Assembly: GCA_964642275.1 (NCBI GenBank)
Contig: CAZXOA010000001.1
Coordinates: 12,729-76,728 of the forward strand
Reading direction: 5' to 3'
From: an uncultured Candidatus Saccharibacteria bacterium
Lineage (GTDB): Bacteria; Patescibacteriota; Saccharimonadia; Saccharimonadales; JACDBH01
Length of the DNA: 64,000 bases
Made by a program: the position numbers and the translations under genes. The notes below the pieces were generated by a model that saw nothing but the letters and a program-made list of their open reading frames with translations, made no database searches and had not been told where the DNA came from. Below are positions 4,623 to 36,069 of the stretch, piece after piece (position 1 is the stretch's first letter; every line of letters begins with the position of its first letter).

Positions 4623-5957
4623 ATGTATATGTACAGAGATGAGAAAACCATCTACGATTATCCTGAACTATACGAGGATAATTATACAGGTTTCGATGCC
4701 ACTCAGCGATGGGAGGCCGGCGTGGTTTCTGTAGATGAGATGTTTGACCCATATTGCCAGGATGTGTCGGCGGATGCTCTGCCCGAAGGCAGGTTTCCTT
4801 TTATGACAGATGCCGACAGGGCTTTTGATCAGAAAATGCGGAGTCTCTGCCCTGCAGCAGGCTACTTGGATAAAGATGAGGAAGCGCTACTGACACGCCA
4901 GGCTCAGGATGGCTCACAAGAGGCCAAAGAGCGTTTGCTTGAGACGAATCTGAAGTTTGTTTTGTGGTTTGCTCGTGAAACCATGGGGTGGCACAAAAAA
5001 CGTAACCAGGAGGTGGGTCGCGAAGCTACTGACTCCAGCGTTACAAACGGCAAGCTACAAGACTATGCTGCCGCACCGCTTGACTATTCCGATAGAGTAC
5101 AAGCAGTAGCTATGGGGTTACTTCAGGCAATAGAAAAGCATGATCCCGAACGAGGCAGGCTCAAGACCATTGCCAGCATTTATATGGAGAGAGCGTTAGT
5201 CAGAGAGATACAGGATACCTCGGAGGAGTTTATAACACGTATACCAGTCCATAGGCATGGCGAATACCGCAGGATTATGGGCAGTACCCGGCAAGCCGCC
5301 GATGAAGGCCGACGGCCGAACCTTGATGAGACAGTCTATGAAACGGGTTTGAGCCATGAATTTGTGGAGTGGATATCTGGTCGGATGGTCACTCTGCGCA
5401 GCGGTTTATCCGTGCAGTACTTAACCGAATACTTCGATGATCAGGCCGAGGACGGGCATGATAGCGATGGCCCTTTGAGCTTTGCGGATCGGGTACAAGC
5501 GCAGGAGGGTTTATCGGCTGAGGCGGTGAGCGGACAAATAGCTACTCAAAGAGTAGTTGAAGAGGTGCTCAATGACCTGAGCGAACGGGAGCGGAGTGTG
5601 GTTGAGATGCGCTTTGGTATTGCCGATAATTCACCCATGCCACTTCATGAGGTTGCACAGGCTCTTGCAGAGATTACCGGGAAGCAAATTACGAGGGAGC
5701 GTGTCCGGCAGATCGAAGCCAAGACCCTGGCTAAGCTTCGGCACCCAAATAAGAGCGGGCCACTCAGGGGGGTATTAGATGGAGGCGCTCATGAACCTGG
5801 TAGTGGAAACAGAGATGGCGTCATCTATGTTACTCAAGACGAATTAGCCGGTTTAAACCTGCCACCCGTTGTTAGATTCGATAACAGGCCGAGCTATAAG
5901 TACAGAGATACGGATCGCCCTCGGCGGTCAAGATTTAAGTACACAGAGGACTGGTAG
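4623..5957 (+). CDS. RNA polymerase sigma factor, sigma-70 family, with atypical N- and C-terminal extensions
   Basis: Region 2 (LETNLKFVLWFARE...; DRVQAVAMGLLQAIEKHDPERG) and a region 4.2 HTH (QALAEITGKQITRERVRQIEAKTLAKLRH). About 70 extra C-terminal residues follow region 4, and there are insertions between the conserved regions. Confidence 0.7.
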   Translation: MYMYRDEKTIYDYPELYEDNYTGFDATQRWEAGVVSVDEMFDPYCQDVSADALPEGRFPFMTDADRAFDQKMRSLCPAAGYLDKDEEALLTRQAQDGSQEAKERLLETNLKFVLWFARETMGWHKKRNQEVGREATDSSVTNGKLQDYAAAPLDYSDRVQAVAMGLLQAIEKHDPERGRLKTIASIYMERALVREIQDTSEEFITRIPVHRHGEYRRIMGSTRQAADEGRRPNLDETVYETGLSHEFVEWISGRMVTLRSGLSVQYLTEYFDDQAEDGHDSDGPLSFADRVQAQEGLSAEAVSGQIATQRVVEEVLNDLSERERSVVEMRFGIADNSPMPLHEVAQALAEITGKQITRERVRQIEAKTLAKLRHPNKSGPLRGVLDGGAHEPGSGNRDGVIYVTQDELAGLNLPPVVRFDNRPSYKYRDTDRPRRSRFKYTEDW

Positions 5958-8086: not shown

Positions 8087-9562
8087 CTATAGCTTTTTGC
8101 CGGGGGTGTCTTTGTAGCGGTCTTTGGGTATCTGCTCTGGACGCAAGTGTTTTTTCCAGTCGAGTTTGTCCTCTTTTTTGCCGTGGACTTTTTTCTCGTG
8201 CTGTTCGATCCACCAGAATTTGATGCCCGTGCCTTGGAAATCAAAGGTTTCGCGGAAAGTCCGCTCCAGATGGCGGCGATATGACCAATGCAGATATTTG
8301 AGCTGTGACCCAAACACCTTGAAACTCGGGTACGGCATGCCCTCTTCCTGTACCACATAACGGAGTTTTGGCTGGCGGTTTTTAAGCCCAGCTGGCGGGT
8401 GCCTGTCGGTGGTTTTGTGCAGCCAGTTGTTCAGTTCGGTGGTCTTGAGCCGCTTGCGGCGGGTTTCGTCGATTTCGAGGACAATATCAAAGATTTTAGC
8501 GACGTTGTGGCCAGTGACAGAGCTGGTGACTATCATTGGTGCCCACGGGATAAAATCGAAGTCGTATTTGATGCGTGGGATGAGCTTGTCGTGGGTAAAG
8601 GCGTCTTTGTCGTCCAGGCTGTCCCACTTGCTGACAACGAGCACCAGGCCCTTGTGGGCTTCTTTGATCATGCCGGCAATTTTTTGGTCGAGCTGTACGC
8701 TTGGTTCGTTGACATCAATGAGTAGCAGGCAGATATCGGCCTGCTCTATGGCCGAGAGGCTGCGGATAACGCTGAATTTTTCGACGCCGCGTTCGATCCG
8801 GCCGCTCCGGCGAATGCCGGCGGTATCAAGGAGTTCGATTTCGCGCTGCATATACTTGACCACCGTGCGGTTGATATCGCGGGTGGTGCCTGCACGGTCG
8901 GCTACAACTGCCTGCTGTTTTTTGGCAAGTGTGTTAAATAGCTGTGATTTGCCTACGTTCGGGCGGCCAAGAATGGCCAGGCGGATGCGGTCATCGGCCT
9001 CTTTGATACTGGCTGCCGGCAGAAGTTCTGACACATGCTCAAACAGTTCCTCTAGTCCCTTCCCTTGCGATACAGAGGTAAGAAAAATATCTTTGACGCC
9101 AAGTTTGCGGAATGGGTCAAATACCAGCGATTGCGGGTCAGCGTTGACGTTTTCAATTTGTAATCTGCCGCTGCCTAGTTTGAGCTGGTCGGCTTTGTTG
9201 ACTGCTAGGACCACGGGTTTGCGGGTTTTGAGAGCCATTTTGGCAACCCGGCGGTCTTCTTCACTCAAGACAGTATGAGCTTCTATCATGACAATAATGA
9301 TGTCGGCGCTGTCGGCTGCCTGGGTGATTTGCTCCTGGATGGTGAATTCAAAGTCATCCTCAGCGGCCTTGAGCCCGGCGGTGTCGACCAGCCAAAAATC
9401 CTTGCCGTCATAGCTGCCTTTGCCGTAGATACTATCGCGCGTCGTGCCGGGCTCGTTGGCGACGATTGCCTCGCGGGCCCCGATGACGGCATTAAACATA
9501 CTGGACTTGCCCACATTGGCACGCCCGACGATAGCTACGATTGGTACTTTTGTCTTCGACAT
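8087..9562 (-). CDS. der: ribosome-associated GTPase Der (EngA), double GTPase
   Basis: Two G-domains (GRANVGKSS...; GRPNVGKSQLFN...) plus a KH-like C-terminus. It also carries a Lys-rich C-terminal tail of about 45 aa. Confidence 0.9.
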   Translation of the reverse strand: MSKTKVPIVAIVGRANVGKSSMFNAVIGAREAIVANEPGTTRDSIYGKGSYDGKDFWLVDTAGLKAAEDDFEFTIQEQITQAADSADIIIVMIEAHTVLSEEDRRVAKMALKTRKPVVLAVNKADQLKLGSGRLQIENVNADPQSLVFDPFRKLGVKDIFLTSVSQGKGLEELFEHVSELLPAASIKEADDRIRLAILGRPNVGKSQLFNTLAKKQQAVVADRAGTTRDINRTVVKYMQREIELLDTAGIRRSGRIERGVEKFSVIRSLSAIEQADICLLLIDVNEPSVQLDQKIAGMIKEAHKGLVLVVSKWDSLDDKDAFTHDKLIPRIKYDFDFIPWAPMIVTSSVTGHNVAKIFDIVLEIDETRRKRLKTTELNNWLHKTTDRHPPAGLKNRQPKLRYVVQEEGMPYPSFKVFGSQLKYLHWSYRRHLERTFRETFDFQGTGIKFWWIEQHEKKVHGKKEDKLDWKKHLRPEQIPKDRYKDTPGKKL

Positions 9563-9567
9563 AGATG

Positions 9568-10230
9568 TTAAATTATAACAGAATAATCTCCTTGTTTCAA
9601 GTCGTTCAGCTGGTAGTGACCGAAGTTTGTGCGGTGGAGCTTCTCAATTTTGTAGCCAAGGTGCGAGAATGTACGGCGGATTTGGCGGTTGCGGCCTTCA
9701 GACATACGAACTTCCCAGGTCTTTTCACTCTGTCCGATCATGGCCAGTTTTAACTTGCTGATGCCGTCGTCTAGTCTGACGCCTTTGTGGCTAATATGGT
9801 CTTGATCGATCGGGTCGAGGGCTTTATCGAGCGTGATGTGGTATATCTTTTCCTTCTGATGCTTAGGGTGCGTCAGTTTGAACGAGAGGTCGCCGTCGTT
9901 GGTCATGAGCAGCAACCCGCTGGAATTTTTATCAAGCCTGCCGACGGGTTGCAGATGCCAGAGATCGCGCGGCAGCAGGTCGTACACAGTTTTGCTGCCC
10001 TGGCCGTTGCGGGATACGACGTAGCCTTCGGGCTTGTTGAGCATGATAGTGGTGTGCTTAGGGTGGTCTTCGAGCGGATGGCCGTCGAGCGTTACCGTAT
10101 CGCTCTCTATAACGGTGTCGCCAATACGCGCCAATACCCCGTTTATTTCTATTCTGCCCTCTCTAATAACATCGTCAGCGCTTCGTCTACTGTACGAAGT
10201 GGCTTGGGCGATGAATTGGTTGAGTCGCAT
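9568..10230 (-). CDS. pseudouridine synthase, RsuA/RluB family (S4 domain plus catalytic domain)
   Basis: N-terminal S4-like MRLNQFIAQATSYSRRSADDVI, and a catalytic region with HRTNFGHYQLNDL. Confidence 0.8.
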   Translation of the reverse strand: MRLNQFIAQATSYSRRSADDVIREGRIEINGVLARIGDTVIESDTVTLDGHPLEDHPKHTTIMLNKPEGYVVSRNGQGSKTVYDLLPRDLWHLQPVGRLDKNSSGLLLMTNDGDLSFKLTHPKHQKEKIYHITLDKALDPIDQDHISHKGVRLDDGISKLKLAMIGQSEKTWEVRMSEGRNRQIRRTFSHLGYKIEKLHRTNFGHYQLNDLKQGDYSVII

Positions 10231-10239
10231 TGATCTCCT

Positions 10240-11736
10240 CTACAGTGCAATCGTATTCGGGTCTTGCTTGTCATCCTGGGGAGCAGATGTCTGCCCTGGT
10301 TGTGGGGTTGGTACTGGAGGCGGCGTGACACCTGCACTACCAAGTACGGCTGCTATTTGCTCTTTCTCTTCCTCTTTAGCAAGCAGCGCATTGAGATCGG
10401 GCTTGGTGTCGACACCGTTCAATGGCTGGATTATTTTCTTGCCTGACGTATCTGAGGGCAAGGTGCTGTGTGGCTGCTCGGGTTCGGGTGCTTCGGTACC
10501 GGGAGCTTCAGATGGCTCAATAGCCGGAGAAGCGGGTACTGTCGTGTCTGCCGGTGTATCCGATGGAGGCGTTGCGACGGGCATTGGGGCTACGGGATCG
10601 GCCGGTGGCAGAGGTGCAAGAGGGTCTGGCGGGATGACCAGATCTTGCCGGGGTGCTAGAGCTTCTTCGGTAGTGACATCGGGCGTGACGGTGCCATCGG
10701 AGGCTATTGTGACAGGAGCTGGCTGTGCCTCTGGCGTATTGACAAAGTCGGCAACCTGCTCGGCAACAATCTGCTGTTCGTTGGCAACACTCGGAGCTTC
10801 TTCGAGCTGCTTCTCGGTACTTTGCGGGAGATCAGGTGTAGCAGCCTCCTGAGCGGCGGGTGCTTCTGGTACTGTTTCTGCTGGCGGTACTGCGGTTTCG
10901 GCAGCAGGAGCAGGGCTGGTTTCTGGTTCAGCTGCAGGTACTTCTGCCGTATCTGTAATCAAGGGATTCACCGGTGGAGCTGGTGCGGCCTCGGGGCTTG
11001 CTGGCAGAACGGGATGAGATGATGTGGATTCAGAAGGTGCGGCCGCTTCGGCAGTTGCCGTATCAGCTCCTAGTGTAGTTGTAGTAACCTCGTCAACTGT
11101 GGTGCTTGAGCTTGTATCATTCACGGAGGCTGTCACGATTGGGCTTGAGGTAGCGTCTGCGGAAGGGTTGGAAACAGCGTTTGGTTCGGTTGCCGGAGAA
11201 GCGGGTACTGTCGTGTCTGCCGGTGTATCCGATGGAGGCGTTGCGACGGGCATTGGGGCTACGGGATCTGCCGGTGGCTGCGGCGCGGGAGCAACTGGCT
11301 CTGGCATTGGCGCCATGGCAAGCGGAGCGACGGGCGCGGGGTCTTCTGGGGCTGCCGGTTCACCGCTGGTGCCCTCAAGCACCTCCTTTGATACACGGAT
11401 AACGTCTTCGAGCGTCACCTGCGACTTTACAAGATAACGGTCGGCACCGAGCTTGTCGGCGCGGTCTTTGTCTTCTATCTGGCTGAGAGCGGTCATCATA
11501 ATAATTTTGGTGTTTTTTGTCTCGGGGGAGCTGCGCAGGATATCAAGCATGTCAAAGCCGCTGATCTTGGGCATCATGACATCGGAGATAATGAGGTCTG
11601 GACGTTCTTTTACGGCCAGAGCAAGCGCCTCTTCTCCGTCATGGGCTGACACAATTTCATGGCCTTCGGCAAGCAATCGGGCCTCGTAAATCTCTCTTAG
11701 ATTGTTGTCGTCCTCGACGAGCATGATTTTTGCCAT
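10240..11736 (-). CDS. response regulator with a receiver domain only, fused to a roughly 370-aa Pro/Ala/Thr/Glu-rich low-complexity tail
   Basis: CheY-like receiver (MAKIMLVEDDNNLREIYE...DLIISDVMMPKISGFDML...KIIMMTA) in the first ~125 aa, with no recognisable output domain. The tail holds a repeated 29-aa block. It lies downstream of a PAS histidine kinase on the same strand. Confidence 0.75.
   Translation of the reverse strand: MAKIMLVEDDNNLREIYEARLLAEGHEIVSAHDGEEALALAVKERPDLIISDVMMPKISGFDMLDILRSSPETKNTKIIMMTALSQIEDKDRADKLGADRYLVKSQVTLEDVIRVSKEVLEGTSGEPAAPEDPAPVAPLAMAPMPEPVAPAPQPPADPVAPMPVATPPSDTPADTTVPASPATEPNAVSNPSADATSSPIVTASVNDTSSSTTVDEVTTTTLGADTATAEAAAPSESTSSHPVLPASPEAAPAPPVNPLITDTAEVPAAEPETSPAPAAETAVPPAETVPEAPAAQEAATPDLPQSTEKQLEEAPSVANEQQIVAEQVADFVNTPEAQPAPVTIASDGTVTPDVTTEEALAPRQDLVIPPDPLAPLPPADPVAPMPVATPPSDTPADTTVPASPAIEPSEAPGTEAPEPEQPHSTLPSDTSGKKIIQPLNGVDTKPDLNALLAKEEEKEQIAAVLGSAGVTPPPVPTPQPGQTSAPQDDKQDPNTIAL
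10523..10609. repeat. 87-bp direct repeat, copy 1, inside the response regulator tail
   Basis: gccggagaagcgggtactgtcgtgtctgccggtgtatccgatggaggcgttgcgacgggcattggggctacgggatcggccggtggc. It is near-identical to 11192-11278, with one mismatch. Confidence 0.8.
11192..11278. repeat. 87-bp direct repeat, copy 2, 669 bp from copy 1
   Basis: Same sequence as 10523-10609 apart from a g-to-t change. On the coding strand it encodes the PADPVAPMPVATPPSDTPADTTVPASPA block. Confidence 0.8.
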
Positions 11737-11803: not shown

Positions 11804-13132
11804 CTACAGCTTCGTATCCGCCCCTGTAATAGTGGGGAGCTCGGTTGCCTGTTGCTTCTGGAGCTCGGTTGCCTGTGTCGTACTGATTCGAGGAAGGTTT
11901 ATGTAAAAAATGCTTCCTTTGCCTACCTCGCTCTCAACCCAGATTCTCCCGTGGTACATCTCAACGATCTTCCGGCAGATAAATAGGCCCAGGCCGGTGC
12001 CGCCGATAGTACGAGTGGCCGAATTATCAACCCGATAAAACTTCTGAAACAGATGAGATACATCTGCAGCCGGTATGCCCGGACCGGTATCCTGGACACG
12101 GACCTGCACGACTGATGGGTCGCCGGTCAGTCCAATGGATACCTTGCCGGATTCGGTGTATTTTACTGCGTTATCGAAGAGGTTGGTGACAACTTCTCGT
12201 ATGCGGTCAGGGTCAACCTGTACGTAGTACAGCGGCTTAACAAGATTTGTATCGCTGGCATCGATGATACTATCCTGTGCGCCGAGTACGAACTCGAGCG
12301 CCAAACCCTTTGCTTGTGCAGTGAATTTGAGGGCATCGGTGACATCATGCAGGAATTGTCCCATCTCCACGACGACCGGGTGGTTTGTCAGTCGGCCGTC
12401 TTCTGCTTTTGCGCTTGTGAGAAGGTCTTGAAAGAGTTTGCCAAGATGTTTTGTGCTGTCATGTGCTTTGTCCAAAAAGCCCCGGGCCTTTTCGTCAATA
12501 TTGCTCACTTTATCGTTTAGCGCCAGTGCGAGGTAGCCCTCGATTGCGGCAACGGGCGTGCGCATTTCGTGGCTGGCAGTACTGATAAAGTCTGCCCGTT
12601 GAGCCTCCTCTCGTCGCTGTTCGCTGACATCGCGAAAAACTGCGACGGCGCCGCCGACACCTTCGTCGGCATCAAGAATCGGCGTGACGGTGATATCCAC
12701 AGAGATAACCCCCTTTGACTTTGTGGCGAGGCTGGCGAGCCTGTCGCTGGTGACGGTCTTTTCTGCATAGGCCTTAAAAAAGGCATTCTCTGATTCCTGG
12801 TACGGCTCACCTCTGTCGTTCTGGAACTGGAATACCGCTTTGTAGTCAATGCCAACGGCTTCGTGAGGATCCCATCCGGTGATAATCCCGGCAGCAGGGT
12901 TGAAGTGCTGGATGGTCTGTTCCGCATCCAGAAGGATGACTCCGTCACTGATAGATTTGAGGATGATATCAGACTTGAGCTTTTCATTTTTTAGGCTACC
13001 GGCAAGCACGCTTGCCTTGCCGAGCTTGGCAACACTTTTGCTGCGTTGACCGTAAAGCATGAGAGCAGCAATCACGCCGATGACAATAGCTGCGCTTCCC
13101 CCGATAACAAGATATGGTCCCACTCGTGTCAC
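11804..13132 (-). CDS. sensor histidine kinase (TM, PAS, HisKA, HATPase_c)
   Basis: H-box ISTASHEMRTPVAAIEGY and G-boxes (DTGPGIP...GGTGLGL). There is a TM helix at the N-terminus. Confidence 0.8.
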   Translation of the reverse strand: MTRVGPYLVIGGSAAIVIGVIAALMLYGQRSKSVAKLGKASVLAGSLKNEKLKSDIILKSISDGVILLDAEQTIQHFNPAAGIITGWDPHEAVGIDYKAVFQFQNDRGEPYQESENAFFKAYAEKTVTSDRLASLATKSKGVISVDITVTPILDADEGVGGAVAVFRDVSEQRREEAQRADFISTASHEMRTPVAAIEGYLALALNDKVSNIDEKARGFLDKAHDSTKHLGKLFQDLLTSAKAEDGRLTNHPVVVEMGQFLHDVTDALKFTAQAKGLALEFVLGAQDSIIDASDTNLVKPLYYVQVDPDRIREVVTNLFDNAVKYTESGKVSIGLTGDPSVVQVRVQDTGPGIPAADVSHLFQKFYRVDNSATRTIGGTGLGLFICRKIVEMYHGRIWVESEVGKGSIFYINLPRISTTQATELQKQQATELPTITGADTKL

Positions 13133-13234: not shown

Positions 13235-13311
13235 TGGTGACCCCGGCGGGATTCGAACCCGCGATCTTCTGGATGAGAACCAGATATCCTGAACCGCTAG
13301 ACGACGGGGCC
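13235..13311 (-). tRNA. tRNA-Glu (anticodon CTC), CCA encoded
   Basis: The reverse complement is ggccccgtcgtctagcggttcaggatatctggttCTCatccagaagatcgcgggttcgaatcccgccggggtcacca. It has a cloverleaf with the T-loop GGTTCGAATCC and a 7-bp acceptor stem with one G-U pair. Confidence 0.85.
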
Positions 13312-13445: not shown

Positions 13446-14156
13446 ATGAGACAGATCGCTGATTTTGTATTGGTGCACGGTTCGGGTGTTGATCCTCTGA
13501 ATCCTGGTATGCCATCGCCTGTTACTGCAAGAAATGCTGATGAGGCAGCCAAGCTAGTAACGGCGGGTAATGTGAACTGGGTGGTTACAACCGGCCTCGG
13601 ACCACTCGGTAATGAGATTTCTTCGGAAGCGGACGCAGCTGGTAATTACTTAGTACGGCATTGTGGAATAAATCCCGACGTAGTTTTTCGTTTCTCTGGT
13701 TCAACATCAACCCTCGGCAATCAGATAGGCGGTATTGCTCGGATGGGAGATTTAGGCAGTAGCTGGATTGGCGTGTGTCGTGAGACGCAGCTGCCGCGTG
13801 CAAAGAGGCTCGGCAAAGCTGTGGCTACGGCAACCAAGACTGAGCTGGTTCGCTACATTGGTTCGCCAGAGGCTTCGCTTGGTCTTTTACATCTTGCTAA
13901 GGCATATGGACGTGAGTTGTTCCAGGATACGTTTCTAACCAAGCCTTTCTTGAGGGGGTGCGAAGGCATGTCTCCAGACGAAATGTTGGAGTTCTATGAT
14001 CGTATCAAGCGAAGAAGCGGTGCCTCAGTTGCAAAGGCTGCTATTCATGGTACTCGGCGGGCTAAACATAACCTTTCCGGGTGGCGTAGTGGAATAGGGC
14101 GAAGCCCGGCAGGATTGGAAGCCAGTACGTCAGCAAGCGATAACCAAGTGCGATAG
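13446..14156 (+). CDS. hypothetical protein (possible DUF218/YdcF-like)
   Basis: ORF starting MRQIADFVLVHGSGVD. Its 3' end overlaps the convergent 14062.. gene by about 95 bp. Only a weak family resemblance. Confidence 0.3.
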   Translation: MRQIADFVLVHGSGVDPLNPGMPSPVTARNADEAAKLVTAGNVNWVVTTGLGPLGNEISSEADAAGNYLVRHCGINPDVVFRFSGSTSTLGNQIGGIARMGDLGSSWIGVCRETQLPRAKRLGKAVATATKTELVRYIGSPEASLGLLHLAKAYGRELFQDTFLTKPFLRGCEGMSPDEMLEFYDRIKRRSGASVAKAAIHGTRRAKHNLSGWRSGIGRSPAGLEASTSASDNQVR

Positions 14157-15009
14157 ATAAAGCGGTTGAGGTTGGAGTGCCGGTTGCAACAAGGGCTGCC
14201 GTGAGGGCTGCCTCGGCCCCGCCAATACCGCCCGGCGTCGGTGTAATGGTGGCGCCAATGACGCCGGAACTAAAGACAATCAGTGTTTGCACAAGTGATA
14301 ACTCTACTCCCAGGGCTCTTGCAACGGTATAAAGCACGCCTGCATAGAGCGCGGTAACCATACTTGCCGCCAAAAAGCCCGCCAGCAGTCTCTTGGGCCG
14401 CTTTTGGTAGAGCGACAGCGCCTTTGCGATGCCCAGCACAAGCTGCAGCAGCTTATTCTTTATAAGTGGTACGGCGACTAGTATAAGAGCACACAGGATA
14501 AAGGCAGCGAGAACTACTGGCAGCACAAAGCTCGGGAGCTGAAGCGGCGTAAGCTGATGGGTCGAAAAAATAACAGCGCTGAGCAGGATGGCCATATGGC
14601 CGGCAAACCCGAGCAGGTTATTGAGCGCAACAACCGAGCCCGCCTCAACTATAGTGTGTTTTTGGCGGTGCAGATATCTGACATTAAGCGCGACTCCGCC
14701 CGCACCGGCCGGAAGCAGCTTGGTGGCGAACCCGCTTGCAAGCTGGATGATAACGGTACGCCTGTATGATACGGGCCTTATAGCGAGCGCCATGAAGGCC
14801 GTAGCTGCGGCAAAAAATGTCAGAAACGTCAGGCCTATCCCGGCGGCGACAAACCAAAGATTCGCCTCTGTAAGGCTCTGTAGTGCCTGCGCCAGCGATT
14901 CGCGCTGCGGGATGAGTACTAGCAGCGCCAACAGCATTGCAATCGATACGATGACATATATTCGGGTAAGTCGCCGCGGACGGCGCGAGTGTGGATGGTG
15001 TTTTTGCAT
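14062..15009 (-). CDS. flippase-like membrane protein (lysylphosphatidylglycerol synthase TM-region / UPF0104 family)
   Basis: Polytopic membrane protein with an N-terminal RRPRR stretch and multiple TM helices. The start is taken at an internal Met to avoid overlap with the upstream response regulator. Confidence 0.55.
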   Translation of the reverse strand: MQKHHPHSRRPRRLTRIYVIVSIAMLLALLVLIPQRESLAQALQSLTEANLWFVAAGIGLTFLTFFAAATAFMALAIRPVSYRRTVIIQLASGFATKLLPAGAGGVALNVRYLHRQKHTIVEAGSVVALNNLLGFAGHMAILLSAVIFSTHQLTPLQLPSFVLPVVLAAFILCALILVAVPLIKNKLLQLVLGIAKALSLYQKRPKRLLAGFLAASMVTALYAGVLYTVARALGVELSLVQTLIVFSSGVIGATITPTPGGIGGAEAALTAALVATGTPTSTALSIALGYRLLTYWLPILPGFALFHYATRKGYV

Positions 15010-15019
15010 GCTCTCCCTG

Positions 15020-15421
15020 CTACAGTTTATCGATAAACGTGACGAGCTCTTTTGGAGTGATGGCTGCCTTGATGAGGTAGCCATCGGCTTGGCTCTCTAT
15101 CTCGGCTCTTGTCTCTTCATCTTGGTCGAGATTGGTGGTGATGATAATCTTGCTGGGGAATCCAGGGGATTTTTTCGGGTCGCGTAATATGCGCAGGATC
15201 TCAATCCCGGTCATATCGGGCACCATGAGATCGAGCAGCACAACATCGTAGCCGTTGGTCTGAGCTATCTCGAGACCATCGAGACCATTCAGTGCCGTAG
15301 TGACGTCATACCCAGCTTTGCGCAGGGCGCGTTCATACAGCTCGCTAATAAAGAACTCATCCTCGATACACAGAATTCGCTTTTGGCGAGTCGGTTGCAG
15401 TTTTTCAACAATTTCTACCAT
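15020..15421 (-). CDS. single-domain CheY-like response regulator
   Basis: 133-aa receiver (RILCIEDEFFISELYER...DVVLLDLMVPDMTGIEIL...KIIITT). Confidence 0.8.
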   Translation of the reverse strand: MVEIVEKLQPTRQKRILCIEDEFFISELYERALRKAGYDVTTALNGLDGLEIAQTNGYDVVLLDLMVPDMTGIEILRILRDPKKSPGFPSKIIITTNLDQDEETRAEIESQADGYLIKAAITPKELVTFIDKL

Positions 15422-15433
15422 AAATCTATCTCG

Positions 15434-17017
15434 CTATCTCCTGTATAGGGTGTGGTTTTTTATCCATCCATTAGCTTGGCGCTGGATGCCGTCGCTGCCG
15501 TCTGATTTTTGCCCTGCCGCAATGGCTGCAAATGGCTGCAGGCTGAAACCAAAGGTGCTTCCCTTGCCCTCTTTGCTCGTCGCCCAGACATCGCCGCCGT
15601 GTGCCTTGATAAGCGACTTAACGAGAAACAGCCCAAGTCCGCTCCCGCCAACAGCATTTTTTGAGCGGTGCGACCGGTAAAATTTGGTAAACAGACCCTT
15701 TAGGACACTTTCTGGAATACCAGCTCCCTGATCTGTCACAGTTGTCTCGACCAGACCCTCTGCACCTAGCTTGGCTTCTACCAGAATATCCGGGGCTTGC
15801 CCGCTATACTTGACGGCGTTATCAAGCAGGTTGATGACAACCTCGGAGATACTGATTTTATCAACGCCGACAGTGGGCAAATCAGGAGCTATTGTTAGCT
15901 GAATGCGCTTGCCTCGCACCTGGGCTCGGTTCTGCATGTCGGCAACGATGTGCTGTAAAAGCTCTGGCCAGCTTGCCTCAGTCAGATTGAGTGTGAGCTG
16001 GTCTTCTTCTACCCGGGCAACATTAAGGATATTACTCACAAATGCCGATAGGTTTTGCGAAGCTGCGCTCATCTTGTGCATAAACTCTTTGTGCTCTGGG
16101 CTAAGCGACTCGCCAAGCTCATCCTCGAACAGCTCGATATAACCGCGGAGCATAGTGAGCGGTGTACGCAGCTCATGCACAGCCATAGCCACAAAGGTGG
16201 TTGCTTGGTCCTGCACGCTGTAGGCGCCGCTGCGGTCAAACAGCACTAGCACGGCTTCGTTGCCAGCGCTGTTGTCTTTGCTGAACGAGGCAGCCAGGTC
16301 GAATTTTTTACTGACATTATTGTCGAGCGATAATTTGACCTGTTCCCAAGTGCGGCTATCTGTCGCTTTGTTTTGGCTGGAGGTCTCGAGCCATGACTTA
16401 AGAGTATCTTCTGAGTTGAACGACATGCGTAGTATATCGTGCACGCTCTTGCCCTTCATCGAGGATATTTCTATGCCCAGGTACTGTGCCGCAGCATTAT
16501 TAATGTCGGTGATTACCCACTGCTTATCCAAAATAAATACCGGTAGCGGGATGCTTTCTATGAGTCCGCTAGCGAGAGGCGTTGCTTGTACTGCTGGTAT
16601 CGAAGCTGCAAGTGCGGGTGAAGCGGCGGTTTGCTGCTGCGCAAGCGACGGTACACTGCTGGCATGGTCATAGATCTGCATTATGATTGCGCTCACAAAC
16701 TCCCGGCCCGACTTGAGCTTGTTCAGATCAGGTGCAGGAGTATTCGACCGCTCAGGACTGACGTGCCAGACGGCCTGCCATATCATCTCAAGCGGCGTGG
16801 CGCTGGTTGCCATCAAAATCTTGTAACCGATACAAATGCCAACGAGATACACTGCTCCAGTCAAGATGCCAACTATGAGCATGCCGTGGTCGGTGAACTC
16901 GTGCATACCGATGAAAACACCGGCGCCCAAAAGCCCCGGCAGGACAAGTGCACACACGGCTGCTATGGCCAGCGTTTGCTTATAACGCTTGAAGTGGTTC
17001 ATCCCGCCGCACTCCAC
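15434..17017 (-). CDS. sensor histidine kinase (TM, PAS-like, HisKA, HATPase_c)
   Basis: H-box AMAVHELRTPLTMLRGY. ATP-lid motifs DQGAGIP and GGSGLGL. Confidence 0.8.
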   Translation of the reverse strand: MECGGMNHFKRYKQTLAIAAVCALVLPGLLGAGVFIGMHEFTDHGMLIVGILTGAVYLVGICIGYKILMATSATPLEMIWQAVWHVSPERSNTPAPDLNKLKSGREFVSAIIMQIYDHASSVPSLAQQQTAASPALAASIPAVQATPLASGLIESIPLPVFILDKQWVITDINNAAAQYLGIEISSMKGKSVHDILRMSFNSEDTLKSWLETSSQNKATDSRTWEQVKLSLDNNVSKKFDLAASFSKDNSAGNEAVLVLFDRSGAYSVQDQATTFVAMAVHELRTPLTMLRGYIELFEDELGESLSPEHKEFMHKMSAASQNLSAFVSNILNVARVEEDQLTLNLTEASWPELLQHIVADMQNRAQVRGKRIQLTIAPDLPTVGVDKISISEVVINLLDNAVKYSGQAPDILVEAKLGAEGLVETTVTDQGAGIPESVLKGLFTKFYRSHRSKNAVGGSGLGLFLVKSLIKAHGGDVWATSKEGKGSTFGFSLQPFAAIAAGQKSDGSDGIQRQANGWIKNHTLYRR

Positions 17018-17066: not shown

Positions 17067-18305
17067 TCATGGTGTGAAGCTAACTTTGCTTGTACTGTCT
17101 ATCATTGTAAACCATGTCTGCCCACGATTGAGCTCGATTGTCTTGCCTTCGCCGTCTTTGAGTTCCCACTGTGCGCTGCGGGCTGCTTTGTGCCAGGTCC
17201 CTTGCGTTACAGTGCCATCCTGGAATACAAACACTGCGCCCGAGCCCGTTGTGCCGTAGGTCGTGTGTATACGGTTGGGATGTATGCCTTTGCTGAGCAC
17301 CGGTACTACCACGACATTCGGTGCAATTTGGGCGCCGTTTTCGGCATCGACATGTGCTTGCCCGCCTTGGGCCCTGAGATAGGTATTGGTGGTAGGGTCG
17401 TAGACGAATCCGACATTGTAGAGACGGCTCGAAATATTGAGTGTTATATTCTTGGCATTCGGTGCATCTATGGGTGCCGCGTCTTTGCGCATAAATCCGG
17501 TGAATTCAGAAGAGTAGCTGCGCGCGCTTAGCAAATCAAGTACCTGCTGGCCTGTGGTGTAGTAATTGTGCGGCGCATAGCGGTTGCTGACGCGGCGCAT
17601 GATACCACGGTCGCTGTCGATATCTTTGAGGCCAAGGTTTCTTACGTCCTGTAGTGCCTCTGGTGATCCGCCAGCGTGTACAATAGCTGCGTCAAACGGC
17701 AAGAACCAGTCTATAAAATACGGGCGCAGGCTGCGCACCGGCCCGATATTGGCCGGGACATTATCCTGGTACACCGCGTTAAACCGCGTGATACCGCCCT
17801 CTGCGACGGCTTCAAATATCATATCGGCTTCTCTTAGGCCTGATTGCGGACGTGCCTCGGGGCTGTTTTCTATCTGTACGGCATACAGCGGGCGGTTGTT
17901 GATGTCGGCTGATGCAAGTTCACGCCCACTGAGGCGGCTGTAGATTGGTTCAGGCGGCAGCTCTGGTTCTGGTTCCGGCTCTTGCCGAACAATCGGCGCT
18001 GGTGAAGTATCTCGAATAATAAAGTAGTACACAGCCGCGGCTGCTCCGCCAAGGAGCAGGATCATGACGGTAATTGCAACAATCCACTGCTTTTTCGTCT
18101 TAGGTGTCGGAACCTTAAGTGCAAATTTCTTTTTTGGCTTCGGCGTCTTTACTTCAGTTTCTTCTGCAGGGGCTTCTCTTGCGCTTGGCGCGGTTTCGGC
18201 TGGTGCTGGCCATACCTCTATGTGCTGATTTTCCGGCTCGCTCAACGGCGTGCTTTCTTCAGGGTCAATCTTAGGCCGTTTTGGCCTGCGGATAAATTCA
18301 TCCAT
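17067..18305 (-). CDS. DUF3048-family secreted/membrane-anchored protein
   Basis: N-terminal Lys-rich stretch plus a TM helix, then the conserved ENSPEARPQSGLREADMIFEAVAEGGITRFNAVYQ block typical of DUF3048. Confidence 0.55.
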   Translation of the reverse strand: MDEFIRRPKRPKIDPEESTPLSEPENQHIEVWPAPAETAPSAREAPAEETEVKTPKPKKKFALKVPTPKTKKQWIVAITVMILLLGGAAAAVYYFIIRDTSPAPIVRQEPEPEPELPPEPIYSRLSGRELASADINNRPLYAVQIENSPEARPQSGLREADMIFEAVAEGGITRFNAVYQDNVPANIGPVRSLRPYFIDWFLPFDAAIVHAGGSPEALQDVRNLGLKDIDSDRGIMRRVSNRYAPHNYYTTGQQVLDLLSARSYSSEFTGFMRKDAAPIDAPNAKNITLNISSRLYNVGFVYDPTTNTYLRAQGGQAHVDAENGAQIAPNVVVVPVLSKGIHPNRIHTTYGTTGSGAVFVFQDGTVTQGTWHKAARSAQWELKDGEGKTIELNRGQTWFTMIDSTSKVSFTP

Positions 18306-23108: not shown

Positions 23109-24581
23109 CTAATCGTCGATGACTGTTTGCGTCAAAGCCTTTTTGTTGCCATCAGTCTTGGACTCTTCAAAAGTAAAGACATTATCATAATCGCGGTCAA
23201 AGAAAGGCCCTGAGTGCAAACGAGATGTCACGAGAGTGTTCTCGTTGCTGCCGTCAAAATCAACTATGTATGATTGGTCCATGGCGGTGAAGATGTAGCG
23301 GTGGCCGTCCATCCAGCGGATTTTGTCTGTGAGGGCAATGTCCTGCGCAAGTTCGATCCTGTATTGATTGCCGTGTTCGAGATCCAGCGTGATAATCCTA
23401 TTGCCGCTCTGCAGCCCGATGAACTGCGTGTTGGCAGAAAACGATACAAATTGCGGGCTATCCAGCCGAATGAGAGCAAAAACCTGCGGAGAGCCGGCAC
23501 CTTGATGCTTGAGTGTTGCGAGCGGGTTTTCGTATACAGATACAACGGTATCGGCAGAGCTGCCGGCGACGTAAAACCACTTGTTATCATATCTTGATAC
23601 ATCCATGACGTACCGCGGCGCGGCGGTGACTGTTTTGAGAACATACGTCTTGTCTCCTTCGAGAATACGTATGTCTGCTTTGTCGGCACTGACGTCTTGC
23701 TGGGTTGCGTACATGACAATATCGTCGCCGTATGTGGCATAGTCGATGACTGCGTCGGCCAGCGGGGCCGAAATTGTACGATTGCCCAGATTAGCGGCTC
23801 GAAGCAAACCAGGAGTTGAGTCGAGGTAATAGAATTGGTCGTGCCGCTTATTTTTGAGCGAAACAACTTGCGGCGCAATACCAAAAGCGGTGTTGAGATT
23901 CACCGTTTCGGCAGGCTGTTCCCTGTCTAGTACGAGGAATTCTGATGTTTCATCAAACGTGCGCTCGAACATAACGTGCCGGTTATTGTTTGACCACTCT
24001 ATAACCCTGAGCGAGGCGATGGCGCCCGGATTTGTCAGGGCTGCCGGAGGTACGACGATACTTGCCGGCTGCCGATCTGGACTATTCAGGTCAAATACCT
24101 GGAATTGATAGGTCTGGCCGGGAACTTGTACTAACACCCAGCGTCTGTCAGGGCTCTGGGTTGCAAGTGCCGGGAGGGCATCAAATTGAGCGACATCGGT
24201 TGTAACGAGCTGGTTTGGCAGCAGGAACGGATATACCAACCGCTGGATTTGACCGCCCTCAAGGTTGAAGGTTCGCTCCCAGGTGCGGTAGCCATCGCGC
24301 TCCAGTCGGATAGTGTAGACGCCGGACGGCAATACCATGCGGGCATCGGTCCTGCTGCGGTGTTCTTTATCATTGACAAATATCCGGGCGCCCTGCGGTT
24401 TGGAGTCGACAAATACAATGCCGTTTTGGATGAGCGTGCCGGTCTTGCGGTCAATATCGTATCCGTAGGCGAGGTATAAAATCGTCATAGTGCCGATCGC
24501 TACCAAAATACCCATAAGCACATAGCCCAGCATGAGCCGTCTTCTATGAGCCTTTTTACGTTTGGGGTCTAAAAAATCCAT
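23109..24581 (-). CDS. hypothetical membrane-anchored protein (N-terminal TM, large extracytoplasmic domain)
   Basis: 490-aa ORF with a basic N-terminus followed by a TM helix (LMLGYVLMGILVAIGTMTILYLAY). Confidence 0.4.
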   Translation of the reverse strand: MDFLDPKRKKAHRRRLMLGYVLMGILVAIGTMTILYLAYGYDIDRKTGTLIQNGIVFVDSKPQGARIFVNDKEHRSRTDARMVLPSGVYTIRLERDGYRTWERTFNLEGGQIQRLVYPFLLPNQLVTTDVAQFDALPALATQSPDRRWVLVQVPGQTYQFQVFDLNSPDRQPASIVVPPAALTNPGAIASLRVIEWSNNNRHVMFERTFDETSEFLVLDREQPAETVNLNTAFGIAPQVVSLKNKRHDQFYYLDSTPGLLRAANLGNRTISAPLADAVIDYATYGDDIVMYATQQDVSADKADIRILEGDKTYVLKTVTAAPRYVMDVSRYDNKWFYVAGSSADTVVSVYENPLATLKHQGAGSPQVFALIRLDSPQFVSFSANTQFIGLQSGNRIITLDLEHGNQYRIELAQDIALTDKIRWMDGHRYIFTAMDQSYIVDFDGSNENTLVTSRLHSGPFFDRDYDNVFTFEESKTDGNKKALTQTVIDD

Positions 24582-25919: not shown

Positions 25920-27119
25920 TTAGAAAATACCGTTCCAGATACGCGACCAGAGCGATGGTGCGTTGCCCGCCAGAACGGGCGGCTGATGGTCGGTTTTTAT
26001 GGCAGTGCTGGCAATGTTGCTGCTTGGATCAGGGCTGATTTGCTCGCCCCATACAACAAGCCGATTAATAGTAGTGCCCGGCGGATCGCAGGTGATAAGC
26101 GCCATGGTGCTGGTTTTGCCCGGTACATCACCCAATACTTCAACCTGGCTCGGGCTAACGATTTCCTTTTTGAATACGCGGTACACGTAGCGCACACCGT
26201 TCTTTTCCAGATAAAACGTGTCGTCATTCTCGAGCCGGCTGAGTAGTACAAAGGCAAATTTGTACTGGCCTCGATTGAGGATATTGTTGCTGCTGTGTCC
26301 AAAGATAGCGCCGTTGCCCTGCTCGCCGGGGTTGCTGGTAGTGGCGTAATGAACCACGCCGCGCTCCAAGCCCTCTTGCACAGCGGCCTCCTCGACCGTT
26401 TCTACGTCATAGACAACCGGCAGTTCGACATTGATTTTTGGGATAATGAGCTTTGGGTCGCTGCCAACCGGCGTATTACTGCCAGCGATGAGCGGCGATG
26501 AACTGACGGTTTTGCTTGGGCTGACAAAGGGTGCAATGAACCGCTCGTTAAAAAAGCCAAACAGCAGAAGGAGCATGGTAAAGGCACCTGCTCCCACTCC
26601 GAACCCGAGCGATTTGAGATGCTGTTTGCGGCTGAGCTTGCCGCGGGTCTGTACCTTTGATGTAATTTGCTTTTTGAGCTCGGCGATAGATTGCGGGCGC
26701 TTGGCTTTGGTGCCAACTGGAGGCGGCGGTGAGAAATCGGCGGCAAAGATGCTGCTGGCTTGTGCCTGTGGGCCAGCTGGCTGAACTGCCTGCGAGGCAA
26801 AGGTCGGCTTGTGTTCCTGTGCATGGTAGAACTCATTCCAGACCTCGTGCTTTTCCTTGTCGGGCAAAGCGGTGTAGTAGTCGTGCCATTCGGTTTGGAT
26901 GTGGGCAAACGGCTTGCCGGATGCAGCCAAGTCTGCCATGAACCTCTGATGTTTACTTCGTTCTTTTGGCTCTTCCTGAACGCTCTCAATCGATACAGTA
27001 ACGGCGTCTGGCGCTTGCGCATACAATGACGTTAGTTTGCTGCGAATGAGGTTTGCGGCATCATTGTGAGGATTGTTATCGCCCGGAAGCGCAAATGTTG
27101 GCTGGCTATCGTCTTTCAT
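25920..27119 (-). CDS. sortase-family transpeptidase with a long N-terminal cytoplasmic extension
   Basis: C-terminal sortase domain with the active-site motif MALITCDPPG (TLXTC). About 190 aa precede the TM helix. Confidence 0.7.
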   Translation of the reverse strand: MKDDSQPTFALPGDNNPHNDAANLIRSKLTSLYAQAPDAVTVSIESVQEEPKERSKHQRFMADLAASGKPFAHIQTEWHDYYTALPDKEKHEVWNEFYHAQEHKPTFASQAVQPAGPQAQASSIFAADFSPPPPVGTKAKRPQSIAELKKQITSKVQTRGKLSRKQHLKSLGFGVGAGAFTMLLLLFGFFNERFIAPFVSPSKTVSSSPLIAGSNTPVGSDPKLIIPKINVELPVVYDVETVEEAAVQEGLERGVVHYATTSNPGEQGNGAIFGHSSNNILNRGQYKFAFVLLSRLENDDTFYLEKNGVRYVYRVFKKEIVSPSQVEVLGDVPGKTSTMALITCDPPGTTINRLVVWGEQISPDPSSNIASTAIKTDHQPPVLAGNAPSLWSRIWNGIF

Positions 27120-27218: not shown

Positions 27219-27305
27219 GCCGCGGTGGTGGAATTGGTAGACACGCCGGACTCAAAATCCTGTGTCCATTAGGACGTGCCGGTTCAAGTCCGGCCCGCGG
27301 TACCA
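27219..27305 (+). tRNA. tRNA-Leu (anticodon CAA), long variable arm, CCA encoded
   Basis: gccgcggtggtggaattggtagacacgccggactCAAaatcctgtgtccattaggacgtgccggttcaagtccggcccgcggtacca. It has the T-loop GGTTCAAGTCC and a class II variable arm. Confidence 0.85.
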
Positions 27306-27456: not shown

Positions 27457-27993
27457 ATGCTGAATTACATTATGAGCGTAATACCCCGCCCTTCGAAGTG
27501 CAAAATGACAGTAGAAGATGGCAGACCAAAAAAACTTGCAGAGAGCGTAGTATCTCGTTTTGTGCACAAGTATTGGTCTTCACAGCAGTATAATCATTTG
27601 CCGCAAGTGGTCACTATTGATAGCCTCAGGCTTTTTGGGCAATCCCTAGGAGTCATAGGCCCTCAAAGGGTTGCGAATAACGGCCGCCATGCAACGTATG
27701 CTCAGGGCTTATATACTTGGGCCCAAGAAAGAGGAGAATGCGCATATTGTGATACGCCTGTCCATCCGATGGCCAATATGCACGCTGATCACATAGTTCC
27801 CCATCATGAAGGCGGTAAAACAGAGGTAGAGAATCTGGCCTGCGCTTGTAAGGACTGTAACATTGCAAAGGGAAATTGGGATGCCGAATACTACTTGAGC
27901 CAGCTTCAAATAGGAGGCGTGGGCTGGCGTCAGCAACGACTAGTGCAGCAGCAAAAGTATTTTGCTGAGCGGCAGTGGCAGCCTTGGGCTTAA
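27457..27993 (+). CDS. HNH endonuclease
   Basis: HNH motif CAYCDTPVHPMANMHADHIVPHHEGGKTEVENLACACKDCNIAKGN. The start is uncertain; internal Met at 27505. Confidence 0.7.
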   Translation: MLNYIMSVIPRPSKCKMTVEDGRPKKLAESVVSRFVHKYWSSQQYNHLPQVVTIDSLRLFGQSLGVIGPQRVANNGRHATYAQGLYTWAQERGECAYCDTPVHPMANMHADHIVPHHEGGKTEVENLACACKDCNIAKGNWDAEYYLSQLQIGGVGWRQQRLVQQQKYFAERQWQPWA

Positions 27994-30607: not shown

Positions 30608-31279
30608 ATGCGAGTATTAGTTGCAGAAGATGAGCCGAAAATTTCCCGGAGCATAAAGAAAGGGCTTGAGGCAGAAACCTTCAGTGTGGATGTGGTCGAA
30701 GATGGCGATAGCGCGCTGAGTTACGGACGCAGCCCTGAGTACGACATTATTGTTATGGACTGGATGCTGCCCGGCAGTATTGACGGCCAGCAGGCTACCA
30801 AGTTGTTGCGCGATGAGGGTATCAAGACGCCGATTCTGATGCTGACGGCCCGCGATGGTATTGAGCACAAAGTAACAGGGCTCAATAATGGTGCCGATGA
30901 TTATCTTTCAAAACCGTTTGCCTTTGACGAGTTAGTCGCGCGGCTGTACGCCCTCCTACGTCGGCCGCGCGATTTACTTGGCAAGGCGATTCTGGCCGGC
31001 CGTCTGGCGCTTGATCCTGTGAGCAAGCGTGTTACCTGCAATGGCGAGGATATCGAACTGACTGCAAAAGAGTTTGCATTGCTCGAGTACCTTATGCGCC
31101 GCGCAGGCACAGTGGTCAGTAAAGATGAGCTTATCATGCATGTGTGGAGCGATGACGACAACGTACTGCCGAATACCGTCGAAGTGTATATTGGCTACCT
31201 CAGAAACAAGATAGACAAACCCTACAAAACCGATGTTATCCAGACACGGCGCGGCTTTGGCTATATAATCAATCCCTAG
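30608..31279 (+). CDS. OmpR-family response regulator
   Basis: Receiver domain plus a winged-helix trans_reg_C domain (LTAKEFALLEYLMRRAGTVVSKDELIMHVW). Confidence 0.85.
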   Translation: MRVLVAEDEPKISRSIKKGLEAETFSVDVVEDGDSALSYGRSPEYDIIVMDWMLPGSIDGQQATKLLRDEGIKTPILMLTARDGIEHKVTGLNNGADDYLSKPFAFDELVARLYALLRRPRDLLGKAILAGRLALDPVSKRVTCNGEDIELTAKEFALLEYLMRRAGTVVSKDELIMHVWSDDDNVLPNTVEVYIGYLRNKIDKPYKTDVIQTRRGFGYIINP

Positions 31280-35553: not shown

Positions 35554-36069
35554 CTAGAGTTTGCCCCAGTCTTTTGCAATAAGTTTCTGCCACAAGCCGC
35601 CCGCAGTTACAAACTTTTCAGGAGCGGTCTCAAGCTCCTTTAGAAGAGCTGGCTTGCTGACCCAGCGGACCTGCTCAACTTCTTCCTTTTGCAACACAAA
35701 GACTTCAACTGGCCAGTCAACAGTCGCGTGGTACGAGGCAGCATAGCGACCAGTGCCGTCTTTGTGCCAGTGATGCTGGCGGTATATCTCCTGAGGCTTG
35801 ATACCCGTCAGACCGATTTCTTCTCCGGCTTCCTTGGTGATGTTACTCAAGAACGTTTCGCCTGGCTCGAGTGTGCCCGATGCAGCTGGGCCCCATAGTC
35901 CCGGGCTATGCTTCTTTTCCCAACTCCTTTGCGCGAGTAGCACTTCGCCATGGCTGTTCTCGACCCAGAGCGCAGAGATAGCCAGAATATCCCCTGCCTC
36001 GAGTGCGTGCCTGTCTTTTTCTCCGATAAAACTTCCCTGCTTATCTGTGAGTACGCCCATATTGCTCAT
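35554..36069 (-). CDS. NUDIX hydrolase
   Basis: Nudix box GTLEPGETFLSNITKEAGEEIGL. Confidence 0.75.
   Translation of the reverse strand: MSNMGVLTDKQGSFIGEKDRHALEAGDILAISALWVENSHGEVLLAQRSWEKKHSPGLWGPAASGTLEPGETFLSNITKEAGEEIGLTGIKPQEIYRQHHWHKDGTGRYAASYHATVDWPVEVFVLQKEEVEQVRWVSKPALLKELETAPEKFVTAGGLWQKLIAKDWGKL

Follow-up and report, generated by a model that had tools for sequence, protein, structure and literature searches.

FtsZ and SSB carry a conserved terminal peptide at the end of a variable linker. The Myxococcus protein RomR has a receiver domain, then a disordered stretch rich in Pro, and at its C-terminus a helix that binds MglC at nanomolar affinity; its output is purely protein-protein (PMC12719032). 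Microdomains are described for RNase E in PMC4435900, and the motif of FliM and FliY that binds phosphorylated CheY (CheY-P) is EIDALL, which in FliM is part of the N-terminal peptide LSQxEIDALL (PMC6700473, PMC9126983). Here we describe a protein of related design from an uncultured Candidatus Saccharibacteria bacterium (GenBank assembly GCA_964642275.1, contig CAZXOA010000001.1, positions 12,729 to 76,728; this whole stretch of 64,000 nucleotides is called the window below, and coordinates refer to it). The 498-amino-acid (aa) response regulator encoded by the open reading frame (ORF) at 10240..11736 on the minus strand is, on balance, probably a cytoplasmic response regulator without a folded output domain, whose output would be protein-protein interaction through short motifs carried on a disordered, acidic tail.

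The gene starts with ATG, has a Shine-Dalgarno-like element (GGGGAAG) upstream and ends with a stop codon at 10240-10242; its product combines a receiver (aa 1-122) with a tail of 376 aa (aa 123-498). Pfam recognises Response_reg only (aa 4-105, 78.8 bits against a cut-off of 30.2), and the partial NCBIfam matches (PleD, RpaB, PhoB and RssB among them) lie within the receiver and far under their curated cut-offs, which bears out the proposal of an earlier note on this DNA that the receiver comes with neither a DNA-binding nor an enzymatic output domain. The tail is composed of 20.5% Pro, 17.6% Ala and 11.4% Thr, with a net charge of -48, one aromatic residue and no Trp, and a comparable Pro/Ala/Thr-rich stretch is absent from every other of the 56 ORFs in the window. 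In a public collection of 15 billion proteins the exact sequence is present once, as a singleton cluster (P0001).

Several assignments to described classes were rejected. No Trans_reg_C, GerE, Sigma54 or helix-turn-helix match was found in the regulator that would make it an OmpR/PhoB, NarL or NtrC-type transcription factor; the PleD model (receiver + GGDEF) reaches 85 bits where 474 are required, confined to the receiver and with no GGDEF, and the RssB model ('Regulator of RpoS') reaches 55.8 bits against 329, over aa 3-120 only. A chemotaxis CheY was discarded on account of a partner kinase of the HisKA/PAS type, the 376-aa tail and the absence of che/fli genes, or of any flagellar or chemotaxis gene, within the window. 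Two plus-strand ORFs that overlap the regulator (10034..10852 and 11024..11437) were also dismissed as genes, being antisense artefacts of Pro/Ala codon composition; homologues keep the minus-strand frame.

Most of the tail is formed by linkers that cannot be aligned between species, and set among them are short conserved islands that keep a fixed order. Linker 1 (10822..11370, as all features of the regulator on the minus strand; aa 123-305) is acidic, rich in Pro, Ala, Thr and Ser, predicted to be disordered and unalignable across species. It leads into island M0 (10684..10821; aa 306-351), made of helices at aa 306-312 and 317-333 and a small hairpin, VTIASDGTVTPD, that follows them; the helix sequence SVANEQQIVAEQVADFVNT corresponds to the family consensus aQTxxxEQxxVxxQIxxFV (aa 312-334 in the window protein), in which the E, Q and F columns are conserved. 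A clade-specific island, QDLVIP (10630..10647; aa 364-369), is kept as DL[VKIH]LP in nearer relatives. Island A, GKKIIQPLNG (10414..10443; aa 432-441; GKK[VI]IQP[IL]ND in the family), emerged from position-specific counts over 99 homologues and from a profile search. Island B, KPDLNALLAKEEEKE (10336..10404), reads KPDLNxLLAKEExKE in the family (aa 445-459) and continues as a predicted helix (aa 448-467); its P, D, L, N, L, L and E are near-invariant in the 99 homologues. The extreme C-terminus is island C, DPNTIAL-COOH (10243..10263; aa 492-498), with the family pattern D-P-N-x-[IV]-[AS]-L: among 120 homologues the final Leu is kept in 109, D in 102, P in 111, N in 92, I/V in 104 and A/S in 117. 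Neither the DPNxIAL tip nor island B recurs in any other ORF of the window and the related loci (~446 kb together).

The distances between these elements vary widely among relatives, from 115 to 476 aa between the end of the receiver and the PDLN motif of island B and from 28 to 94 aa between B and the C-terminus. The order M0, B, C was found in all 77 proteins in which simple patterns detect M0, A/B and C together. A divergent clade (loci L021, L022, L023 and L028) has the variants PNI[NY]ELYEKEM and DPNDPA[NS]FAL, and the same clade also carries PLVEPSEQDLIHAQN and IDVSQIEGLxVGEEQPL. Further clade-specific tail islands occur in L005, L014, L019 and proteins of the P0040 type, namely AAxNAxKLAxxVNxLL, the hairpin I.[VI]..DG[TS][VI] and DL.LP. 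The reading of the tail in the earlier note holds in so far as no known domain is present, and needs correction in that the tail is not featureless, since at least four short conserved islands follow one another in fixed order.

Structure prediction agrees with this division. In AlphaFold2 (AF2) models built with the family alignment, the linkers have a per-residue confidence (pLDDT) below 50 (231 residues, including most of linker 1), in keeping with the mostly disordered, low-complexity tail that had been proposed. M0 and its hairpin reach 82-94 in the full-length model and 80-93 in a model of aa 300-498 alone, and the B helix (aa 448-467) reaches 78-91 and 79-91, respectively; this comparison served as a docking test, and the identical confidence with or without the receiver does not favour docking. 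In these models, the islands are confidently predicted local elements within a disordered chain. A fold search with the tail-only model gave no match in the PDB at E<1, and a profile of the extended M0 alignment gave none at E<=0.01 in 5.8 billion proteins, a result that is uninformative, as ~30 positions cannot reach significance. Had homologues shown a conserved folded domain, the disordered tail of the earlier note would have been in doubt; this applies in part only, what is conserved being short helices and a hairpin without a PDB fold match. It is most likely these short motifs of the tail that carry the output.

In sharp contrast with the linkers, the receiver (11371..11736; aa 1-122; PF00072) is strongly conserved. 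It contains the complete catalytic set, D9/D10, D52 (codon 11581-11583), T82, the aromatic switch residue Y101 and K104, of which all except D10 are invariant in 116 family sequences. AF2 predicts a (beta-alpha)5 fold (pLDDT ~85-94), and Foldseek matches it to the receivers of RpaA, VicR, PleD, CheY4 and RR468 at a root mean square deviation of 1.3-2.0 A, with target-normalised TM-scores of at least 0.9 against isolated receiver structures; the full-length model retrieves matches to the receiver only. Identity to the window protein across 28 species-level relatives is 80-92% (median 87%), compared with 55-79% for Der, 50-77% for the kinase and 47-60% for RluB in the same loci, and ~70 receiver positions are invariant in the family alignment (116 sequences). 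The receiver is therefore more conserved than an essential GTPase, which implies strong constraint across most of its surface, and such extreme constraint suggests several interaction surfaces.

This architecture is shared by a large set of proteins. The related loci, from species-representative genomes, are labelled Candidatus Saccharibacteria, Saccharimonadales or simply 'bacterium', and a protein search retrieved more than 100 full-length relatives of 279-644 aa (279 aa being the minimum among the 120 family members listed), whose annotations go no further than 'CheY-like chemotaxis protein', 'response regulator' or 'hypothetical protein'. When 1.84 billion representative proteins were searched with a profile of the A-B-C module, 589 matches at E<=0.001 were obtained, so that the family comprises at least 589 clusters at 50% identity. 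Among the best 150 of these 589 matches, the module lies at or within ~30 residues of the C-terminus in 149, the single exception being a 1252-aa protein with a weak, repetitive match; 123 of the 150 are new proteins (96 with the family receiver, 26 short fragments and the one weak match), and none shows the module in an alternative architecture. Judged from these sequences, the A-B-C module is specific to the receiver + tail architecture. A survey of the literature on two-component systems and response regulators of Saccharibacteria, Nanosynbacter, Southlakia and Patescibacteria found no description of this large saccharibacterial family of response regulators, to which the window protein belongs.

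The gene neighbourhood is equally stable. Directly upstream of the regulator, across a gap of 67 bp, lies a sensor histidine kinase gene (11804..13132, minus strand) whose product has one N-terminal transmembrane (TM) helix followed by PAS, HisKA and HATPase_c domains (Pfam); NCBIfam finds it to resemble PnpS, WalK and PhoR, in each case below the cut-off. Downstream follow an rluB-like pseudouridine synthase gene (9568..10230, minus strand, gap 9 bp; Pfam) and the gene for the GTPase Der (8087..9562, minus strand, gap 5 bp; Pfam). The order kinase, regulator, rluB, der, often continued by pth, is kept wherever the contig extends (28 loci). A cognate PAS kinase directly upstream had been proposed, and the pairing is present here and in 26 of the 28 related loci, that is, in every one that reaches far enough upstream. 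The 3' end of the kinase gene holds a 17-nt exact direct repeat (11836-11852 and 11860-11876, 24 bp apart) that doubles 'QATEL' in the C-terminal tail of the kinase (…TTQATELQKQQATELPT…). Upstream of the kinase, a tRNA-Glu(CUC) gene (13235..13311, minus strand) is also found at this position in most related loci (L003-L048); it lies on the opposite strand to the kinase-regulator pair in most relatives and on the same strand in the window and in L004, a difference that suggests a small local inversion.

The same gene arrangement occurs in Southlakia epibionticum ML1, where the PAS kinase SEML1_0312 is followed by SEML1_0311, the pseudouridine synthase SEML1_0310, a hypothetical gene and Der (SEML1_0308) (PMC10633639, Tables S1 and S2). 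SEML1_0311 (1488 bp, 495 aa) is automatically annotated as 'Regulator of RpoS', has a Pfam receiver at aa 4-106 only and is marked as a core family (PMC10633639). In the transposon sequencing (Tn-seq) analysis by hidden Markov model, it is classed as non-essential at T0 but as essential at both T1 and T2, while the kinase is non-essential throughout (PMC10633639, Table S1); the main text of that paper makes no mention of SEML1_0311.

Among described systems, the closest in plan is RomR (Myxococcus xanthus MXAN_4461, also found in Bdellovibrio), which is built of the same three parts: a receiver at the N-terminus, then a long linker that is disordered and rich in Pro, then a short, acidic and helical region at the C-terminus; the match is architectural only, and an output like that of RomR is what we propose here. 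RomR, compared by description only, has a key W394 helix without counterpart in the Trp-free saccharibacterial tail, and no likeness was noted beyond the receiver, the best 150 of the 589 A-B-C profile matches being of the saccharibacterial type only. In contrast to RomR, the saccharibacterial regulator has a dedicated classical kinase gene adjoining its own and additional islands (M0, the GKKVIQP motif and the DPNxIAL tip). Neither MglA, MglB, MglC (Roadblock) nor RomX was found when the window ORFs were scanned with Pfam, and membership of the RomR family was not assigned, given the differing motifs, the tail without Trp and the lack of Mgl/Rom genes within the window. The FtsZ C-terminal linker and peptide, the acidic tip of SSB and the microdomains of RNase E follow the same design, a fast-evolving, biased linker of variable length with conserved docking peptides; the likeness is one of design only, as the folded domain (here a receiver) and the motifs differ. 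With the CheY/FliM pair, this regulator shares a CheY-like receiver and a short helix of the acidic-hydrophobic type xLxALL: DLNALL of island B and EIDALL share 4 of 6 residues and differ conservatively at 2, a short and non-specific likeness. In the CheY/FliM case the peptide is on a separate protein, whereas here it is on the same polypeptide as the receiver, and the kinase is of the HisKA type, not CheA. Finally, DivK, CpdR, Spo0F and RssB likewise act through a receiver without a DNA-binding domain; unlike the saccharibacterial regulator, the first three have no tail, and RssB has a folded PP2C-like domain.

Linker 1 and the linker between the QDLVIP island and island A contain a direct repeat: copy 1 (N-proximal, 11192..11278, minus strand, codons 154-182) and copy 2 (C-proximal, 10523..10609, minus strand, codons 377-405) are 87 nt each, differ by a single synonymous mismatch (GCA/GCC), encode the same 29 residues, PPADPVAPMPVATPPSDTPADTTVPASPA, and are spaced by 669 bp, or 223 codons, in frame. 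Coordinates and sequence were checked and agree with the two near-identical copies described earlier. The longest exact run between them is 77 nt, as compared with a mean of 10.5 nt and a maximum of 18 nt in 1000 codon shuffles of the tail, so the two copies are far beyond chance. The duplicated block is conserved in none of the relatives compared. In alignments with the nearest full-length relatives (P0002 and P0003, 47-49% identity), copy 2 matches a diverged but recognisable segment and would occupy the ancestral position, while copy 1 faces a gap, which suggests that it arose recently as an ectopic copy or gene-conversion tract. The repeat is thus apparently a recent duplication, as had been suspected, or gene conversion of a linker segment, specific to this lineage, and is not a functional motif in itself. 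An exact 32-mer from it found no match in metagenome contigs, and a protein-guided metagenome scan returned 11 relatives, none near-identical (the best at 93%, in the receiver only).

Independent in-frame linker repeats are present in L021 (6422-6754; 117 nt, 87% identity, 216 bp apart), L023 (6463-6749; 53 nt, 96% identity) and L004 (6450-6842; 34 nt, 94% identity), as well as in the L016 regulator (a 22-aa block) and P0049 (34 aa repeated exactly). Their blocks measure 22-39 aa with 79-100% identity, and segmental duplication is therefore the usual route of linker growth. M0, its hairpin and the DLVIP island lie between the two copies in the window protein, and recombination between these would give a 275-aa protein lacking all three and retaining A, B and C, comparable in size to natural short forms of 265-279 aa. 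Because a conserved mid-tail island would be lost, this would be a functional, non-neutral change of length. The length variation anticipated for the tail is real between species (279-644 aa in total).

Taken together, short conserved islands in fixed order on a disordered linker make the scaffold or tether reading of the tail, one of those put forward earlier, the best of those considered. The adjacent membrane-anchored PAS kinase would phosphorylate the receiver at D52; the sequence shows the required residues and the pairing of the genes, and the phosphotransfer is inferred. The acidic Pro/Ala/Thr-rich tail may then serve as a flexible spacer whose length is free to evolve, presenting the helical islands M0 and A/B and the hydrophobic C-terminal tip DPNxIAL to partner proteins, and the regulator would act as a phosphorylation-controlled scaffold or adaptor. 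Several points weigh against this. The partner proteins are hypothetical and binding by the islands is a proposal; the part of the genome in view is 64 kb. The confidence of the islands is independent of the receiver, so that the models are silent on what the islands touch, and a high pLDDT of a conserved helix is no proof of a binding function. The hydrophobic moment of M0 is modest (5.7% of shuffles reach it), and the B helix is not notably amphipathic, so amphipathy is not counted in favour of the model. The islands are not all universal, as M0 is absent from some clades or replaced there by another helical island, AAxNAxKLAxxVNxLL. SEML1_0311 is placed in the family by synteny, length and domain content rather than by sequence, and retains 47-52 transposon insertions and ~2700 normalised reads despite its 'essential' call (PMC10633639), a call that can be read in more than one way and would be consistent with only a portion of the gene being essential.

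Alternatively, the islands could act in cis. B (KPDLNALLAKEE) or M0 would fold onto the alpha4-beta5-alpha5 face of its own receiver or that of another molecule, leading to autoinhibition or to phosphorylation-dependent head-to-tail self-association, like the FliM peptide on CheY-P. The resemblance of D-L-N-A-L-L in island B to the E-I-D-A-L-L of FliM/FliY, its tethering to a CheY-like receiver that retains the switch residue Y101, and a nearly invariant receiver surface, as expected if several faces are used, speak for such an arrangement. That resemblance, however, spans six residues and was recognised only in retrospect. DIPAFLRK, the C-terminal peptide of FtsZ, is about equally similar to island B, so that the pattern is generic for short acidic-hydrophobic helices. 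With M0 and B predicted equally well in the presence and absence of the receiver, and co-variation between receiver and island B in L021, L022, L023 and L028 confounded by phylogeny, we regard a cis-acting peptide as rather unlikely. The tip DPNxIAL-COOH might instead mark the protein for degradation, as a non-polar degron of the ssrA/ClpXP type for which the disordered tail would provide the initiation region for unfolding, the regulator being itself under proteolytic control or serving as an adaptor. Non-polar C-termini are classic ClpXP and Tsp signals, and single-domain receivers, CpdR and RssB among them, work in proteolysis; the motif is strictly terminal, with its final Leu kept in 109 of 120 homologues, and such a role would be compatible with the scaffold model. 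Yet D-P-N equals the hydrophobic end in conservation, pointing to a specific docking site rather than a generic degron; the tip is shared with no other ORF in the ~446 kb, and no transfer-messenger RNA (tmRNA) gene is present in the window or the related loci. A degron therefore seems improbable.

It could also be argued that the tail is a passive spacer or entropic bristle on a protein functioning as a stand-alone receiver, either a phosphate sink or a diffusible regulator of the CheY/DivK kind, with incidental islands. Most of the tail is indeed unconstrained in sequence and length, and the genome also has a true stand-alone receiver (15020..15421), so regulators of this kind are in use. Against this, the islands are retained in a family of at least 589 clusters at 50% identity, where they keep their order and, among the matches listed, always their C-terminal position. 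A passive tail would moreover be lost in reduced genomes, and none of the 120 listed members is shorter than 279 aa; we consider this explanation quite improbable. The surface association of the tail raised in the earlier note, under which it would be exported as an extracellular tether, recalls the Pro/Thr/Ala-rich, cell-wall-spanning regions of Gram-positive surface proteins, and a sortase is encoded elsewhere in the window. It fares worst in light of an N-terminus formed by the receiver, with no signal peptide or TM segment, a C-terminus, DPNTIAL, that bears no LPxTG-type sorting signal, and a receiver that must meet the DHp domain of the kinase's cytoplasmic core; export can be given hardly any credence. 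Finally, the 87-bp repeat itself might be an assembly artefact, a chimeric or falsely duplicated segment of a metagenome-assembled contig, since the source is uncultured and the public data hold a single copy of this regulator sequence. The two copies differ, however, by one synonymous base and have different flanks, and their spacing preserves the reading frame. Through both copies, the gene lines up with its relatives element by element (receiver, linker, M0, hairpin, DLVIP, A/B, C), and analogous in-frame linker repeats occur in the relatives' independent assemblies. With typical settings, common assemblers end with k-mers longer than 77 nt, the length of the longest exact run. An artefact is accordingly unlikely, indeed markedly so. 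The scaffold or adaptor reading remains the one we favour.

The window encodes further regulatory genes. A second two-component pair is formed by a PAS-HisKA-HATPase kinase (15434..17017, minus strand) followed by the stand-alone 133-aa receiver (15020..15421, minus strand), whose ORF overlaps the annotated start of an LPG-synthase-like ORF (14062..15084) by ~65 nt; a DUF3048 protein (17067..18305, minus strand) precedes this pair, an arrangement also found in Southlakia (SEML1_0319, 0318, 0317). An OmpR-type regulator (receiver + Trans_reg_C; 30608..31279, plus strand) and a HisKA/HATPase kinase (31281..32309, plus strand) lie further along, so that conventional regulators with DNA-binding domains are present in this genome as well. 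A sigma-70-type factor of 444 aa (4623..5957, plus strand) shows regions 2 and 4 only, region 2 weakly (21.5 bits, below cut-off), and has a long N-terminal part without a detected domain. Among the remaining features are a PEGA-domain protein (23109..24581, minus strand), the sortase, which has a long N-terminal extension (25920..27119, minus strand), an HNH endonuclease (27457..27993, plus strand) adjoining tRNA-Leu(CAA) (27219..27305), and smpB (36066..36524, minus strand), ARAGORN detecting no tmRNA gene anywhere in the 64-kb window. An Eco57I/MmeI-like restriction-modification methylase fusion of 1092 aa (58703..61981, minus strand) lies directly downstream of a 643-aa helicase-C-domain protein (61978..63909, minus strand), the two probably constituting a defence or restriction-modification module.

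Regulators are very few in Saccharibacteria, and host sensing and response by these obligate epibionts are almost uncharacterised. The combination of a receiver, a disordered linker and a binding motif is already known from RomR, so that the saccharibacterial family is not categorically new; it would add a second, independent case in which a bacterial receiver signals by way of motifs on a disordered tail, and it illustrates linker evolution by repeated in-frame segmental duplication. With the motif map (M0, GKKVIQP, PDLNALLAKEE and the DPNxIAL tip), what was a 'hypothetical response regulator' can be resolved into distinct, delimited peptides. A two-component pair fixed beside der and rluB throughout the group, a receiver above an essential GTPase in conservation and a syntenic essential call by Tn-seq in the one genetically tractable species together make this locus a strong candidate for a core control circuit. 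More tentatively, and with considerable doubt, the regulator may be a Saccharibacteria-wide, possibly essential hub whose output lies wholly in short linear motifs, a eukaryote-style scaffold in an ultra-small epibiont that would couple a membrane or cytoplasmic PAS signal to the host-attachment machinery or, because it is always encoded with der and rluB, to growth or ribosome biogenesis, and in which a tethered FliM-like peptide might allow phosphorylation-dependent self-association.

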